IMG/VR virus record: IMGVR_UViG_3300022699_000302
Span: 64,001-128,000 of that record
Reading direction: 5' to 3' (one strand)
From: a virus
Length of the DNA: 64,000 nt
Both the position numbers and the translations under genes were made by a program. Numbering within the stretch: position 1 is the first letter of the stretch; the number at the start of each line of letters is the position of its first letter. Below are positions 15,250 to 58,942 of the stretch, piece after piece. A model generated the notes under the pieces. It saw nothing but the letters and a program-made list of their open reading frames with translations, was not told the DNA's origin and made no database searches.

Positions 15250-15258
15250 TCTTAGGCC
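15250..15258 (-). promoter_or_regulatory. conserved phage promoter-like motif
   Basis: GGCCTAAGA-CTG-TAGA. Confidence 0.7.
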
Positions 15259-15900: not shown

Positions 15901-16517
15901 CGGTTCACTCGCGGTCGACGTTGCTGTCCGTGTGTACGGCTCACTCTGCGGCAGTGTTACAGTTGTTGACGACGATTCACTTCTACGGCACGGCGTGGCT
16001 CACCTCGTACGGTTCACTCTTTTTGTACGGAACAGTTCTACGTCCCGGTTCACTCCTAATGAAGCAGTTCCAGGTCTAGGCTCAATCCTGTGTAGTGGTA
16101 CAGTCGGTGACGACGTTTCGATCAGCGCTTGCGGTGTAATCCAGAGTTGACGGCTCATTCCGGGTGCTTGGTACATTCGGGCGGGACGATTCATTCAACG
16201 AATCGGTACAATTTCTTTCTGCGATTGCTTTTCCTCTGAGAAACAGTCAAAGCCTACGGCTCATTTCATCTAAACAAAGCTTTCGCCAATGTCGATTCAT
16301 TCTGTTCATGCGTAGCTATCTTTTGATGTGATTCATTCGAGGCAAGCGGTACAGTCTCTTATGACGAGTCATTCGACGCAAACACTACAGTCAAATATGC
16401 CGATTCATTCGTTTGTTTTGGAGCAGTTCCTCCTGCCGATTCGATTTGTTACTCCGGTACTGACGTGTGTTACGTCTCGGTCGCGCGGATCGAAACAGTT
16501 ACCTGCTTCGATTAAAG
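15901..16517 (-). repeat. TIGR-like dual-repeat array 1 (about 17 units, 36-nt period)
   Basis: 18 edge motifs (+ strand CGRYTCAYT) from 15901 to 16509, spacing mostly 36; mid-unit motif CGGTACAGT; 9+9+9+9 layout. Confidence 0.8.
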
Positions 16518-16520
16518 GTG

Positions 16521-16650
16521 ATCAGGGCGACAAGGTGGCGTAGAGATACTAGAGCTCTTCCAGTTGAGCTACGGCCGAAGCCGACGGGACTCGAACCCGC
16601 AACCTCTTCGTTATCAGCGAAATGTAATCCCTACAGGTATTCGCCCTGAT
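16521..16650 (-). ncRNA. Y RNA (YrlA-like) 1
   Basis: 10-bp terminal helix AUCAGGGCGA/UCGCCCUGAU, 3' CCUUGUC; T arm GGUUCGAGUCC, UUCG-closed acceptor-like stem, then D arm UAGCUCA..AGAGC. Confidence 0.85.
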
Positions 16651-16651
16651 T

Positions 16652-16816
16652 TTAAATCTCATCGAATTCAGTGAGTTGGTGCTGGTCACGCTCTTTCGGG
16701 CTCATATTATCCCAGCAGCTCTTACAGACCACCGGGTACCCATGAGAATCCTCAAAGCAGCTTCCGCAGCACGAGCATTGAAGGCCTTCGACGATATCGT
16801 CAGCAATCTCTCCCAT
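16652..16816 (-). CDS. small Cys-rich protein (not in ORF track)
   Basis: 54 aa MGEIADDIVEGLQCSCCGSCF..GYPVVCKSC, translated by hand. Confidence 0.7.
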   Translation of the reverse strand: MGEIADDIVEGLQCSCCGSCFEDSHGYPVVCKSCWDNMSPKERDQHQLTEFDEI

Positions 16817-16975
16817 CACTTCTTCTTTGCGTGAGATAAAAAGAAGCCACCGACAGGTCGCGTCATAAGCCTATCCCCTCTCGTCATCGGCGGATTTCCA
16901 GGGAGACGTGACTACAGGGAGCTTCGTACCCAAGATGGGCTGTCGGTGGTGCCACTCCTCAAGCGGCAAAACAGA

Positions 16976-17113
16976 GAGAGTAACTGGGGGAAGGCTACTA
17001 TTCCCGGGGAAAGGCGGTCGCGACAGGTCAAACCTTTCCGTCTTCTTGTGTGACTTCAACCCTTCGTGCATCACACTCAGACGCCCTCGTTGTTTTGAAC
17101 ACCAGTTACTCTC
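16976..17113 (-). ncRNA. unknown structured RNA D
   Basis: 12-bp perfect terminal helix GAGAGUAACUGG/CCAGUUACUCUC plus internal arms. Confidence 0.6.
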
Positions 17114-17121
17114 AAAAGGCT

Positions 17122-17230
17122 AGCAGCAGGCGCGGGTCGTCCGTCTTTCTAAAGCGCCCCCGAGCGCGGGATCTGCGCCGGCGCCGGGCCGAGGTTTAGG
17201 TGCCTCGGTAGCCACCATGTTCCTGCTGCT
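17122..17230 (-). ncRNA. unknown structured RNA C
   Basis: 9-bp terminal helix AGCAGCAGG/CCUGCUGCU; internal CCGAGG/CCUCGG hairpin. Confidence 0.6.
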
Positions 17231-17243
17231 GTAAGGAAGGTCA

Positions 17244-17371
17244 GGGAGTAGGGTGTATACTGTGCCGTTCGGACTATAATCCTACCCACCTCTCGGCTTC
17301 GACGTGTATTTCAACACGCTAGGCCAGCCACCCATCGGCTATTTGCCTCTAGGCCACACTCGCCTACTCCC
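17244..17371 (-). ncRNA. unknown structured RNA B
   Basis: 9-bp terminal helix GGGAGUAGG/CCUACUCCC; internal hairpins. Confidence 0.6.
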
Positions 17372-17381
17372 ATAAAACCAT

Positions 17382-17494
17382 GCGCGGAGAAACTACTGGC
17401 CGGCAGTGGGTCCAAACCCGAAAGCCTATCCCGACTCAGCAGGGTGTGCCATCGAAGGCAGCAGATTCCTAAAGGTCTGCCACTCTCCCCGCGC
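17382..17494 (-). ncRNA. unknown structured RNA A
   Basis: terminal helix GCGCGG(GG)AGA/UCUCCGCGC plus internal hairpins; begins about 10 nt after the promoter motif. Confidence 0.55.
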
Positions 17495-17509
17495 GAAAAG
17501 TGTCTACTG

Positions 17510-17518
17510 TCTTAGGCC
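17510..17518 (-). promoter_or_regulatory. conserved phage promoter-like motif driving the ncRNA cluster
   Basis: GGCCTAAGA-CAG-TAGA. Confidence 0.7.
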
Positions 17519-17538
17519 GAACTCGGCCGGGAAAATGG

Positions 17539-17682
17539 TGCGGTGACAAGGTGTTGGAGAGATATTTACGCGCTCTATCCACTGAGCTACCCCACCACTT
17601 AGCTATGGTGGTGGGGGTGAGGAATCGAACCTCACGACCTCGTCCTTATGATGGAATGTAATCCCTCACGGCATTCACCGCA
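17539..17682 (-). ncRNA. Y RNA (YrlA-like) 2
   Basis: UGCGGUGA/UCACCGCA helix, 3' CCUUGUC; T arm GAGGUUCGAUUCCUC, 9-bp acceptor-like stem, D arm UAGCUCAGUGGAUAGAGC in permuted order. Confidence 0.85.
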
Positions 17683-17943: not shown

Positions 17944-17949
17944 GTTGGC

Positions 17950-18019
17950 GGACCGACAAGGTTGTGTGGAGTCACGGTTCATTTCCAGTAATGATGTAGA
18001 CCCCTACGGCATTCGGTCC
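17950..18019 (-). ncRNA. short Y RNA 3 (no tRNA-like domain)
   Basis: GGACCGA/UCGGUCC helix; shares GAAUGCCGU..AGGG..UACAU and CCUUGUC with Y RNAs 1 and 2. Confidence 0.75.
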
Positions 18020-18072: not shown

Positions 18073-19686
18073 TTATACCAGGCCCTTCTTGATGGCGTCA
18101 ACCCAGTGATTCGTGCCCCCTCTGTCTTCCAGGAAGGTTGAGATGGCGTCGAACACTGAGTCATTGAACCCCCCAACATTCAGAACGTCGGGACGATTCA
18201 CGACCTGTGTGGTCGGGTGGGGCTGAAGGTCGATTAAGACCAACTTGGCATCGGGTCGGTCGGCTCGCTTTTTCCACTCATCCCAGTAATACTGCAGACC
18301 AGTACGATTCTTGGTGTAGTGGCGTGCAGGATCATTGGAGAAGTCCGCCCAGGACTCCATGTCCGAGAGAATGACAACAGCATCGAGATCGAATATCTTG
18401 TTGTCGATCAAGTACTGGATCGCCGAACTACAATCAGTCCCCCCGCCGGAACGTGCCAGCTGATTTACCAGGGTAAAAATGGAGTCACGGTCGGTAACCG
18501 ACGCGAGTTTCGCTGCAGTATCAAATTGGACGACCTTTGCGTCGGGCTGGGAGTGAAGGATGCATGCTGCCATGAGCGCTGCAACCTCACAGCATCGCAC
18601 GTCCCGGGCACCGGCACGCCTCCAGCCTCCCCGGGTGGTGGCCTTACCGACTGCGAGAGCTTGCATCGAGTACGACACGTCCACGCAAACAGCTGCCTTT
18701 CCGAAACGGGGCACGTTATCGATCGAGATCTCGACCGTATCGTGCAAGGCATTTTTGATCTTGGTCGGAATGCCTTCATTGAGGTGGCGGTAGGTCTGGT
18801 AGAGCTGGTACGGGAAGATCCGCTGCTTCTTGATTTGCTCCACATCGGTCAGCTGTTCGACTGCATACTCGACGAATCCCGTATCCTTGAGCACTTCATG
18901 GCGCTCCAGGGTATTGAGGTTCATCCGAAGAGCATGAAGTCCCATCTGGTGCCCCAAGACCTTCCAGTCCCGGGTCGAGAGATCGGGGATCGAAGTCAGG
19001 AGGCGAAACTCGATGCCCTTGGGCTTGCGGTTGCGATACCCCGCCTTCCATTCCTCGAAAACCTTCGCTACTTCGGGGAGCAGCTCCTCGTTGTAGTTGC
19101 GCCCGATCAGGTATGCATACAGGTTTGAGCGGGCTTGATCCGAGGGCTTGGGATGGATCATGTGAATGATGTCAGCGATCGACGGATCGTTACCAACTGA
19201 ATCCCTGAACAGAGCGGCGGGATGACGCTTGTTCAACCAGTGCTCGATCAGCTTCTTCAGCCAGGTGCCGAAGCTTTTTCGACCGAACCGCCCCGAACGA
19301 ATGAATTGCGCGAAGTTGCGGAGCATCCTCCCGTTATCGATCACATGCGGGAATGCCTCGTTGAACTTAACACGGTCGACTCCGGTCTGACTTGCCGCGA
19401 ACGCCATGAGAGCGGCCGGCATATCCTTCATCCACGCTTTCTTGCGCGAGTACACCGCGACATCGATGACGAAGTTCGGGTCGACCTTGCGCGCAGCCTC
19501 CAGGAGGGTCTCGAGCTGCTTCTCGCCGGTGGCGTAGAACGTGTTGTAAAAAGTACCGGTACACGCGTATTGTGCCAAGAGCTCTTCCGGATCGAGCTTC
19601 ATAGCGGCGCCTCCAGCCTCGTTGACCGTATGCTTGACCTCGATCTCGTGGGCCTTGGCTGACTTGAACATTTTCTTGTTCGCCAT
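18073..19686 (-). CDS. rsr: Ro60-related TROVE/vWA RNA-binding protein
   Basis: TROVE region (VNEAGG.., FGRKSFG, ALRMNLNT, RIFPYQ) plus vWA VCVDVSYSM, GGTDC; start MANKK after AGGAG. Confidence 0.9.
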   Translation of the reverse strand: MANKKMFKSAKAHEIEVKHTVNEAGGAAMKLDPEELLAQYACTGTFYNTFYATGEKQLETLLEAARKVDPNFVIDVAVYSRKKAWMKDMPAALMAFAASQTGVDRVKFNEAFPHVIDNGRMLRNFAQFIRSGRFGRKSFGTWLKKLIEHWLNKRHPAALFRDSVGNDPSIADIIHMIHPKPSDQARSNLYAYLIGRNYNEELLPEVAKVFEEWKAGYRNRKPKGIEFRLLTSIPDLSTRDWKVLGHQMGLHALRMNLNTLERHEVLKDTGFVEYAVEQLTDVEQIKKQRIFPYQLYQTYRHLNEGIPTKIKNALHDTVEISIDNVPRFGKAAVCVDVSYSMQALAVGKATTRGGWRRAGARDVRCCEVAALMAACILHSQPDAKVVQFDTAAKLASVTDRDSIFTLVNQLARSGGGTDCSSAIQYLIDNKIFDLDAVVILSDMESWADFSNDPARHYTKNRTGLQYYWDEWKKRADRPDAKLVLIDLQPHPTTQVVNRPDVLNVGGFNDSVFDAISTFLEDRGGTNHWVDAIKKGLV

Positions 19687-19730: not shown

Positions 19731-19739
19731 CCTTAGGCC
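19731..19739 (-). promoter_or_regulatory. promoter-like motif upstream of ro60
   Basis: GGCCTAAGG-TAGA variant. Confidence 0.55.
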
Positions 19740-24746: not shown

Positions 24747-24780
24747 AAAAAGAAAGGGCTCCTTAGGAGGAGCCCTTCTT
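24747..24780 (-). terminator. intrinsic terminator after glnS
   Basis: AAGGGCTCCT/AGGAGCCCTT hairpin plus U-tract. Confidence 0.75.
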
Positions 24781-26364
24781 TTGTTTCTTCTTCCACGGAT
24801 CTTTCAGTGGCACAACTTCGACTAAGTCGATACGGGTACCTACGATACAGACTTTGTAGTATCCTTTTCGCATGAGCTGCACGATCTGCCCGTGTTGGAG
24901 GTCAAGAGGCTCCATAAAGGCTATTGGGAGCTCTTTCATGCTGTCCTCATTGAACTCTCCGTTTTCGTCGAACAGGGGACCCAACTGGTAGATGTTGACC
25001 GGTCGAGCTCCTACGGAGACCCAATGGATCGTGCCTTTGACTTTTTCTTCCGGAAGGAGCTCACACTCGATACCGGTTAGATCCTCGTCCACCTGGAACG
25101 GTCCTACGTGCTTCAGGATACCGGCACCCTTGATCCGGACCTTACCTCCAGGCTTCAACCGTTTGAACTTCGGTGGCGGGTCCCCGGAGAAGTCATCCTT
25201 CTCGATCATGATGAAGTTGTCAACGAGAACCTTCCGAGTCCCGGCTTCGGGATCTTCGGGGTTGTTCTCGATCTCGACATACTCGCCGGCGGGCGATGAC
25301 AGATTGGAGATCCGAACCGATAACGGGTCGAAGACGCACATCACTCGCTGGGATGTCTTGTTGTAGCGGTCCCGGGCGATGTTCTCGAGCTTGTTCGGTG
25401 CGATCACCGAGTGGGTCTTGGACACCCCGATCTCTTCACAGAAGTCCTGGAGCATCTCGGGGGTATACCCCCGATTGCGGAGACCACGGAGAGTAGGCAT
25501 GCGGGGATCGTCCCATCCGTCGACCCTCTTGTCGTAGACCAGTTTACGGAGCTTGCGCTTTGAAAGCACCACTCCATCGACTTCGCATCTTGCGAATTCA
25601 CGCTGTTTTGGGAGGTAGTGGGTGTCGTAAACGGCATCATCGAATTCGGCGTGTTTGAGGAACCAGTTGTAGAGTTGGCGGTGCTCTTCGAATTCGAGAG
25701 TGCAGAGTGAGTGGGTGATCCTCTCGAGATAATCGACCAGAGGATGGCTGAAGTCGTAGCTGGGGTAGATGCAGTACTCAGCGCCGGTGCGGTGGTGAGG
25801 AGTGTAGATGATGCGGTACATCACAGGATCCCGCATCAGAGCACTGGGGTGCTTCCAGTCGATCTTGGCCCTGAGGGTGCACTCACCACCCTTGTAGATC
25901 CCCTTGAACATGTTGTCCCAACGGGCCAGGTTCTCAGAGATCGTGCGGTCGCGATAAGGGCTGGGCTTGAGCTCCTTGTTCGAGTCGCGGTAGTCGGCAG
26001 CATCTCGCGGCGAGAGATCACAGACATAAGCATCACCGCACTCCACCATCTTTCGAGCAACAGTTAGGAGATCCGGAAAGTAGTCCGAGGTGTAGGTGAC
26101 CTCGGGTTTGAATCGTAGTAGCCACGACAGATCTTCAATGATGGCCTTCTCATAGATCGGGGATTCGGTCAAAGGGTTGGTATCATCGAATCTGAGGTGG
26201 CATTTGCCCATGTACTGGGCGGCGATGCCGAAGTTGAGACACGCTGCTTTAGCATGCCCTAGATGCAGGTATCCGTTGGGTTCTGGCGGGAACCGAGTTC
26301 GCACCTCGGAGTACCGCCTTTCTTCGAGGTCCTTATCGATCTCGAGGGTGATGAAGTTCTTCAT
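24763..26364 (-). CDS. glnS: glutaminyl-tRNA synthetase
   Basis: RTRFPPEPNGYLHLGHAK (HIGH), RFDDTNP, VLSKRKL, GWDDPRMPT, KVKGTIHWVS. Confidence 0.93.
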   Translation of the reverse strand: MKNFITLEIDKDLEERRYSEVRTRFPPEPNGYLHLGHAKAACLNFGIAAQYMGKCHLRFDDTNPLTESPIYEKAIIEDLSWLLRFKPEVTYTSDYFPDLLTVARKMVECGDAYVCDLSPRDAADYRDSNKELKPSPYRDRTISENLARWDNMFKGIYKGGECTLRAKIDWKHPSALMRDPVMYRIIYTPHHRTGAEYCIYPSYDFSHPLVDYLERITHSLCTLEFEEHRQLYNWFLKHAEFDDAVYDTHYLPKQREFARCEVDGVVLSKRKLRKLVYDKRVDGWDDPRMPTLRGLRNRGYTPEMLQDFCEEIGVSKTHSVIAPNKLENIARDRYNKTSQRVMCVFDPLSVRISNLSSPAGEYVEIENNPEDPEAGTRKVLVDNFIMIEKDDFSGDPPPKFKRLKPGGKVRIKGAGILKHVGPFQVDEDLTGIECELLPEEKVKGTIHWVSVGARPVNIYQLGPLFDENGEFNEDSMKELPIAFMEPLDLQHGQIVQLMRKGYYKVCIVGTRIDLVEVVPLKDPWKKKQKKGSS

Positions 26365-27170: not shown

Positions 27171-27179
27171 TCTTAGGCC
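27171..27179 (-). promoter_or_regulatory. conserved phage promoter-like motif
   Basis: GGCCTAAGA-ATA-TAGA. Confidence 0.7.
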
Positions 27180-58695: not shown

Positions 58696-58786
58696 TGGCA
58701 CAGCGGGGAGGACTCGAACCTCCAACCTTCCTACTAAGCGGACGGGCCCGCTTTTCAGATGCTCTACGCAATTGAGCTACCGCTGT
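58696..58786 (-). tRNA. tRNA-like RNA with anticodon loop replaced by a hairpin (no readable anticodon)
   Basis: acceptor ACAGCGG/CCGCUGU, GCCA end, D arm GCUC..GAGC, T arm GGAGGUUCGAGUCCUCC; 21-nt anticodon region AAGCGG-GCCCGU-CCGCUU. Confidence 0.75.
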
Positions 58787-58787
58787 G

Positions 58788-58863
58788 TGGTGCAGGGAGA
58801 AGGACTCGAACCTTCATTTCCGAGCTTAAGAGCTCGGGTCCTAACCAATTGGATGATCCCTGC
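58788..58863 (-). tRNA. tRNA, Lys(CUU)-like, with non-canonical anticodon loop
   Basis: GCAGGGA/UCCCUGC, ACCA end; arm CCGAGC-UCUUAA-GCUCGG gives a 6-nt (or 8-nt) loop. Confidence 0.75.
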
Positions 58864-58864
58864 T

Positions 58865-58942
58865 TGGCGGTCCCGGCGGGATTCGAACCCACACCCTCCT
58901 GAGTTTAGAGCCCAGGCGCGCTGCCAGTCGCGCTTCGGGACC
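58865..58942 (-). tRNA. amber suppressor tRNA (anticodon CUA)
   Basis: GGUCCCG/CGGGACC, GCCA end; 6-bp anticodon stem CCUGGG/CUCAGG, loop CU-CUA-AA; canonical D-loop GG and T-loop UUCGAAU. Confidence 0.85.

Follow-up and report, generated by a model that had tools for sequence, protein, structure and literature searches.

The stretch of DNA analyzed here (the window) comprises 64,000 nucleotides (nt), positions 64,001 to 128,000 of the IMG/VR virus record IMGVR_UViG_3300022699_000302, and is part of a phage genome of 194,114 bp that IMG/VR lists as complete, with direct terminal repeats; all coordinates given without a contig name are window positions. Our subject is a cluster of five tandem structured RNA domains, M1 to M5, which occupies 17494-16847 of the minus strand downstream of a gene for Ro60. 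Everything relevant at this locus, namely Ro60, the Y RNAs and the five domains, is carried by the minus strand. The Ro60/Rsr gene (rsr, 18073-19686) encodes a protein of 537 amino acids (aa) with Pfam matches to vWA_Ro60 (3e-11) and TROVE (4.7e-6), and among named proteins it is most similar to the TROVE protein of Myxococcus phage Mx1 (41.5% identity). The approximately 2.2 kb downstream of rsr are nearly devoid of genes, and it is here that the five-domain cluster sits, between two Y RNAs of the YrlA type recognized by the Rfam model RF02553. The first (17537-17681; 44.6 bits, E = 3.9e-8) lies immediately upstream of the cluster and the second, YrlA-2 (16521-16647; 56.1 bits, E = 1.8e-11), downstream of a small cysteine-rich (Cys-rich) open reading frame (ORF); both scores fall under the gathering score of the family, 69 bits. 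A third, short Y RNA (approximately 18019-17945) came from a search for the shared stem motif, the pair GAAU(A/G)CC ... CUUGUC, which is related to the Y RNA motif GNCGAAN0-1G and located all three canonical Y RNAs of the locus.

In each of the five domains, the two ends pair with each other into a closing helix of 9-12 bp, and U-rich linkers of 7-13 nt separate the domains; from the promoter-like motif in front to the tail behind, the whole unit measures about 670 bases. M1 (17382-17494, 113 nt) is closed by an 11-bp helix with two G-U pairs and contains three internal hairpins. It is followed, after a U-rich linker of 10 nt (17372-17381), by M2 (17244-17371, 128 nt), whose 9-bp closing helix is prolonged by a second coaxial stem and encloses several internal hairpins. 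The second linker (17231-17243, 13 nt) is pyrimidine-rich, 12 of its 13 positions being kept in L015, a contig of the relative described below, and leads to M3 (17122-17230, 109 nt), where a 9-bp closing helix surrounds an invariant 6-bp hairpin with an 8-nt loop and a second, covarying hairpin. The third linker (17114-17121, 8 nt) ends in UUUU and precedes M4 (16976-17113, 138 nt), which has a 12-bp closing helix and is absent from the relative. Between M4 and M5 stands a small 8-bp hairpin, hp0 (16950-16968). M5 itself (16847-16949, 103 nt) consists of an invariant 10-bp closing helix above a long irregular stem, and its closing helix is followed by a U-rich, terminator-like tail (16833-16846). 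A U-run is present in every linker. The first-pass annotation had described M1 to M4 as four segments closed by terminal helices and spaced by 8-13 nt. Both statements were confirmed, as the helices formed in single-module folds and in one fold of 701 nt, and the linkers between M1 and M4 measure 10, 13 and 8 nt; the fifth RNA that it suspected further downstream is also real, being represented by hp0 and M5 with its tail.

The tandem closed-domain architecture is far beyond chance. The measure was the number of exterior domains, 90-150 nt long, with a closing helix of nine or more contiguous pairs. This strict count is four at the locus, M2 being missed because the global fold adds four outer pairs. 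No such domain was found in 248 of 250 dinucleotide shuffles, and the remaining two had one each; elsewhere in the genome, 405 of 409 stretches of 661 nt lacked such a domain and four had one, and two were never found together in either set. The folding z-scores are modest (-1.97 for M1, -3.64 for M2, -1.64 for M3 and -3.06 for M4), with none of 200 shuffles of M4 being equally stable, and the full cluster stretch is not unusually stable against shuffles (z about -1). The domains do not pair with one another in the global fold. With regard to the strand, the folding energy of the whole stretch is -257 kcal/mol for the minus strand versus -237 kcal/mol for the plus strand, and over most of its length the minus strand is the favoured RNA; for M1, the minus-strand fold is more stable than the plus-strand fold by 10 kcal/mol.

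As had been stated at the outset, the modules have no sequence in common. A BLAST comparison of the modules with one another and with the whole genome found nothing, so that paralogy among them was rejected, and a multi-copy mobile element was rejected because every module is single-copy in the genome. Rfam scans were performed on the window at gathering thresholds and at E up to 5, and on the relative at E up to 1. No family, including riboswitches, ribozymes, 5S, signal recognition particle (SRP) RNA, 6S, tmRNA, RNase P and ROOL/GOLLD, matched the domain region, which agrees with the earlier remark that signatures of tRNA, Y RNA, SRP and hammerhead RNAs are lacking, and none matched the modules of the relative. 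ARAGORN and the tRNA model RF00005 likewise gave no match in M1-M5. Protein coding was also rejected, as the longest stop-free run is 84 codons and none spans the cluster; furthermore, the relative differs by indels of a single base, which excludes coding.

The surroundings raise the question of whether the modules are true Y RNAs, in which the terminal stems would be divergent Ro60 sites and the interiors different effector-tethering modules, giving the phage eight Y RNAs. The proximity to rsr that is expected of Y RNAs is present, rsr lying on the same strand 0.6-1.2 kb upstream of the modules, and the modules are placed between canonical Y RNAs. Each of them shows a 5'/3' terminal stem and then a U-rich tail, as Y RNAs do, and Ro60-bound RNAs missed by sequence searches are on record (Chen et al. 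2014, PMC4201824). In addition, the M5 closing helix is similar, on both strands, to the Ro-binding stem of the short Y RNA, here as a perfect helix without an internal loop, a likeness that we regard as a lead and not as a test. Judged by their sequences, however, the modules fail the tests for Y RNA membership. The defining 5' motif of Y RNAs, GNCGAAN0-1G, lies inside the terminal stem, close to the 5' end (Chen et al. 2014, PMC4201824), and it is absent from all five stems: the 5' strands of M1, M3 and M4 lack it, the version in M2 has one mismatch and is lost in L015, and that in M5 has two mismatches. The YrlA model, run at E up to 5, matched only 17537-17681 and 16521-16647 and nothing in 16847-17494, a covariance model of M5 matched no Y RNA, and the closing helices are perfect, without the bulge or internal loop of Ro sites. 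The pentamer CGAAG, which occurs internally in M2, M4 and M5, was considered as a Ro60 motif and rejected, as it is lost in the relative. In our view, it is unlikely that the modules are Y RNAs in the strict sense.

The cluster could be compared with one relative, which is represented by two short contigs, L004 and L015, both from the sequencing run SRR17165164. Among 5.8 billion protein clusters, only one close Ro60 was found, with 83% identity, on L004, which stops 217 nt past rsr; L015 was reached through the homologue of a 76-aa gene that lies beyond TIGR array 1. The order in L015 is the 3' part of a tRNA-Gly, M2, M3, hp0, M5, the Cys-rich ORF, YrlA-2, the array and the 76-aa gene. Identity to L015 is 93% for M2 (L015:68-194), 88-92% for M3 (L015:208-317) and 86-88% for hp0 with M5, and YrlA-2 is 96% identical over aligned positions. 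By comparison, rsr of the window and of L004 share 78% nucleotide identity overall and 49% at third positions of conserved four-fold-type codons; the modules are as highly conserved as second codon positions (90-94%). M2, M3 and M5 are thus under strong purifying selection, and as they are nearly unchanged in the relative, they are probably functional. M2 has an invariant block of 43 nt and M3 one of 35 nt, loops included, and the closing helices are invariant apart from the outermost pair of M3.

The changes that did occur were also informative about the folds. In total, there are four compensatory pair changes, and approximately nine one-sided changes keep pairing. M2 has one compensatory, three one-sided and no broken pairs relative to L015, and M5, in the consensus fold, has one, five and none, respectively. 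The hairpin of M3 at 17184-17164 shows two compensatory changes, from G-C to C-G and from C-G to U-A, and hp0 is kept in L015 with a change from G-U to G-C. When folded alone, the modules of L015 give the same closing helices, with z-scores of -2.0 to -3.2. The 3' third of M3 is variable, and its fold as predicted from one sequence is unsupported.

Searches for further homologues yielded only the window and this relative. Neither a search of IMG/VR with the Ro60 protein and the neighbouring AAA ATPase, nor blastn against GenBank phages, nor exact-word scans from M2 and M3 in IMG/VR and genome contigs found another, and the whole cluster had no BLAST match in nine other phage records, that of Myxococcus phage Mx1 among them. 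An 18-mer of M2 had 34 matches in metagenome contigs, all of them chance occurrences inside unrelated sequence. The homologue search with the Cys-rich ORF gave only a non-syntenic contig of 944 nt, and a translated spurious ORF over M4 matched only low-complexity proteins. Covariance models of M2 and M5, run against the genome of this phage, other phages with YrlA and 80 rsr loci from bacteria, matched only the window and L015.

The most pronounced difference between the two phages concerns M4. Together with a linker (approximately 145 nt in all), it is missing from L015 exactly at the module borders, with TTTTG on both sides; thus, the units defined by the closing helices are also units of gain and loss. 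In the slot adjoining M2, the window has M1 and L015 has the tRNA-Gly (41.7 bits; gap of 4-7 nt); as L015 begins inside this tRNA, it offers no M1 homologue to compare. The 12-bp inverted ends of M4 and the TTTTG on both sides, set against the empty site of the relative, recall the insertion of a small transposon, and one might suppose that the domains are DNA-level elements, such as the terminal inverted repeats of small mobile elements, or chance helices or mere terminators, without any function as RNA. However, every module is single-copy in the phage and no copies were found in the other phage records searched, the G-U pairs favour one strand as RNA, the interiors and not the ends alone are conserved far above neutral, and a full terminator tail follows only M5. 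As a U-run is present in every linker, recombination between linkers accounts just as well for the M4 difference, and we regard an explanation at the DNA level or by chance as barely credible.

The Y RNAs around the cluster differ between the two phages as well. As the first RNA after rsr, the window carries a short Y RNA that lacks a tRNA-like part (17945-18019), and the relative a complete YrlA including T and D arms (L004:2990-3180), despite 83% identity between the two Ro60 proteins. The Y RNA set turns over quickly. In YrlA-2, the acceptor-like stem-loop (16581-16600) is 12 nt longer in the relative (L015:700-725).

Directly upstream of M1, at 17500-17519 on the minus strand, lies a promoter-like motif composed of a T, 2 nt, GGCCTAAGA, 2-3 nt and a conserved T-purine-purine-A-G block; M1 starts approximately 6 nt past the end of its conserved part. 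The promoter motif that the first-pass annotation placed at 17510 is a copy of this recurrent motif, with the core GGCCTAAG. The 8-mer core occurs in 30 copies in 194 kb versus 5.9 expected, with conservation extending into flanking positions. Most copies are located 35-55 nt ahead of a ribosome-binding site and start codon, and many come directly after a C/U-rich terminator tail. Further minus-strand copies lie at 19737, before rsr, and at 15256, and the copy before rsr is also kept in L004. A search for a T7-type RNA polymerase gene that would explain the motif gave no match in the phage, and the control genomes were also without a match. At the other end of the cluster, the tail after M5 is in the style of the terminators that precede many motif copies, has a 12-mer in common with the one at 27177 and is kept in L015. 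A consensus scan for intrinsic terminators found none on the minus strand here, the only full terminator tail being that after M5. With the motif upstream and this terminator-style tail downstream, M1-M5 look like one transcription unit.

Taken together, it is well supported that M1-M5 are real, selected and independently folding RNA genes in one operon. Our preferred interpretation, to which we assign a probability of roughly 0.55, goes one step further and holds that they form a dedicated noncoding RNA operon inside an 'RNA island' of the phage, composed of Ro60, Y RNAs and TIGR arrays, and act as separate RNAs. Transcription probably starts at the phage-specific promoter-like motif (17519-17500), and the transcript would cross the five unrelated RNA genes and terminate, at least in part, at the closing helix of M5 with its U-rich tail. 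Cleavage of the precursor within the U-rich linkers would then release individual RNAs of approximately 100-140 nt, whose invariant loops may be bound, in trans, by proteins or other RNAs. A helix that locks the 5' and 3' ends together is typical of stable RNAs such as tRNA, 5S rRNA and Y RNAs, and helix-locked ends with a U-rich tail are a hallmark of stable, exonuclease-resistant RNAs as well as the general shape of Ro60-bound RNAs. Given the location and this Y-RNA-like shape, the phage Ro60 particle may be the most likely partner, with the modules as its non-canonical partners or clients, or else each module might serve as a decoy that captures its own RNA-binding protein of the host; a role with Ro60 is something that we only infer. 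The polycistronic cluster of small noncoding RNAs proposed in the first-pass annotation is well supported in an indirect way, by a promoter-like motif, a tail, a noncoding character, selection, structure-preserving changes and border-exact gain and loss; the roles suggested there (decoys, Ro60 cargo or sponges) are guesses, and no target or partner was found.

Several observations weigh against such an operon of separate RNAs. When substitutions were placed at random on the window-only folds, 10 broken pairs were observed versus 14.3 expected (P = 0.05), a marginal difference; by module, M2 supports its fold (P = 0.03), and M3 alone gives no support (6 broken versus 5.4 expected). The covariation was read from two genomes only. 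The stem of the M5 'terminator' is a long-range helix that closes a 103-nt domain and not a compact hairpin. With neither the Y RNA motif nor a YrlA model match in the modules, what links them to Ro60 is their position. Finally, no further promoter motif is found between the M5 tail and 15256, and hence read-through into the Cys-rich ORF, YrlA-2 and TIGR array 1 is possible. If these downstream genes need read-through from the promoter before M1, the cluster might act in cis, as a structured leader or processing scaffold for them, or might be one large multi-domain RNA, and the order of M5, tail and Cys-rich ORF is indeed kept in the relative. However, neither the absence of M4 nor a tRNA in place of the neighbour of M2 alters the rest, which speaks for independent units, and since entire modules can disappear, a cis-acting leader is less likely; the domains are not paired together in the global fold, and five different conserved folds would be unusual for a leader. 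We consider a function in cis very unlikely.

Even if M1-M5 are separate RNAs, their partners may lie outside the Ro60 particle. The modules might be decoys or sponges unrelated to Ro60 that mimic ligands of different host RNA-binding proteins, nucleases and defence sensors, their position beside rsr reflecting shared expression. The five folds are unrelated to each other, the invariant loop-containing blocks in M2 and M3 suggest sequence-specific recognition, the module content varies between two close phages as the cargo of an arms race would, and the YrlA RNAs of other phages stand in tRNA arrays together with unclassified structured RNAs. However, no likeness to a known host RNA was found in Rfam, the 80 bacterial rsr loci or the genome-contig scan; we hold this hypothesis to be rather doubtful. 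A more specific form of the operon interpretation, that M1-M5 constitute a new class of Ro60-associated RNAs in which a plain terminal helix and U-tail replace the Y RNA motif and each interior recruits or traps a different host factor, can be put forward only tentatively. If true, such a swappable cassette of RNA modules would reprogram the phage Ro60 particle.

The operon interpretation is of interest beyond this phage. The substrates of phage and bacterial Ro60 other than Y RNAs are largely unknown, and M1-M5 are concrete candidates for partners, clients or decoys: five compact RNAs of no known family, with a promoter-like motif, lodged between Y RNAs and arrays of TIGR guides. That two close phages differ by the gain or loss of one module with exact borders suggests exchangeable RNA cargo, and large phages may hold more unclassified structured RNAs in tRNA/Y RNA islands than family libraries capture.

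Several other features of the genome belong to this setting. The Cys-rich ORF between M5 and YrlA-2 (16652-16819, minus strand) encodes 55 aa and is zinc-ribbon-like; it is kept in the relative at 69% aa identity, and its sole other homologue (contig L006) lies in a different gene context. The 36-nt period of a TIGR-type guide array, which was checked in part, is present at 16333-16411. An ORF of 351 aa (39577-40632, minus strand) shows a weak match to the C-terminal domain of the IS110 family (Transposase_20) and is probably a nuclease-less TasA paired with the TIGR arrays; our literature search found no paper linking TIGR systems with Ro60. No match to RtcB was found in the phage. The phage has only three tRNAs, all outside the cluster region and all odd: one has the amber-reading anticodon CUA, another an anticodon loop of 8 nt (CUUA), and the third an insertion of 27 nt in its anticodon region. 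It also encodes a class I aminoacyl-tRNA synthetase of the Glu/Gln type, and these tRNAs and the synthetase are located at 58699-58942 and 24763-26364 on the minus strand. This combination is a hint of stop-codon or quadruplet decoding.

Structured RNAs without a family assignment were also seen in other YrlA-bearing phages, where they lie within tRNA arrays. A 146-nt gap at L011:10292-10437 contains a domain closed by a 7-bp helix, and an element of approximately 150 nt is common to two phages (L011:10607-10756 and L007:9302-9457). On a contig with a Ro60 of 46% identity, two short Y RNAs and two YrlA RNAs follow rsr (L005:6573-7238), together with an additional 220 nt of structured noncoding sequence that ends in the same style of C/U-rich terminator tail.

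Among known systems, the YrlA Y RNAs (RF02553; PMC4201824) offer the first comparison. Like them, the modules lie beside rsr on the same strand, measure approximately 100-140 nt and have paired ends around a structured interior, and we also count it as a likeness that YrlA loci hold several different RNAs that are processed from longer precursors. Unlike them, the modules have no GNCGAAN0-1G motif, no bulged Ro-type helix, no T-arm/D-arm module and no match to the YrlA model. The second comparison is with Yrl1 and Yrl2 of the Thermus phage phiLo, which carry a CGAA motif and were shown to bind Ro60 and the host PNPase (NAR 2025, PMC12135203). These RNAs, found by position, structure and the CGAA motif, are also small phage RNAs adjoining a phage Ro60 gene (PMC12135203); the CGAAG of M2, M4 and M5 differs in being internal and in not being kept in the relative. 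The third comparison is with the tRNA and noncoding RNA islands of large phages, which likewise consist of tightly packed, co-oriented small RNA genes with short linkers and which elsewhere include YrlA. M1-M5 are not tRNA-like as the genes of such islands are, but in the relative it is a tRNA-Gly that adjoins M2, and the island in the window looks like a version of the large-phage tRNA array with few tRNAs.
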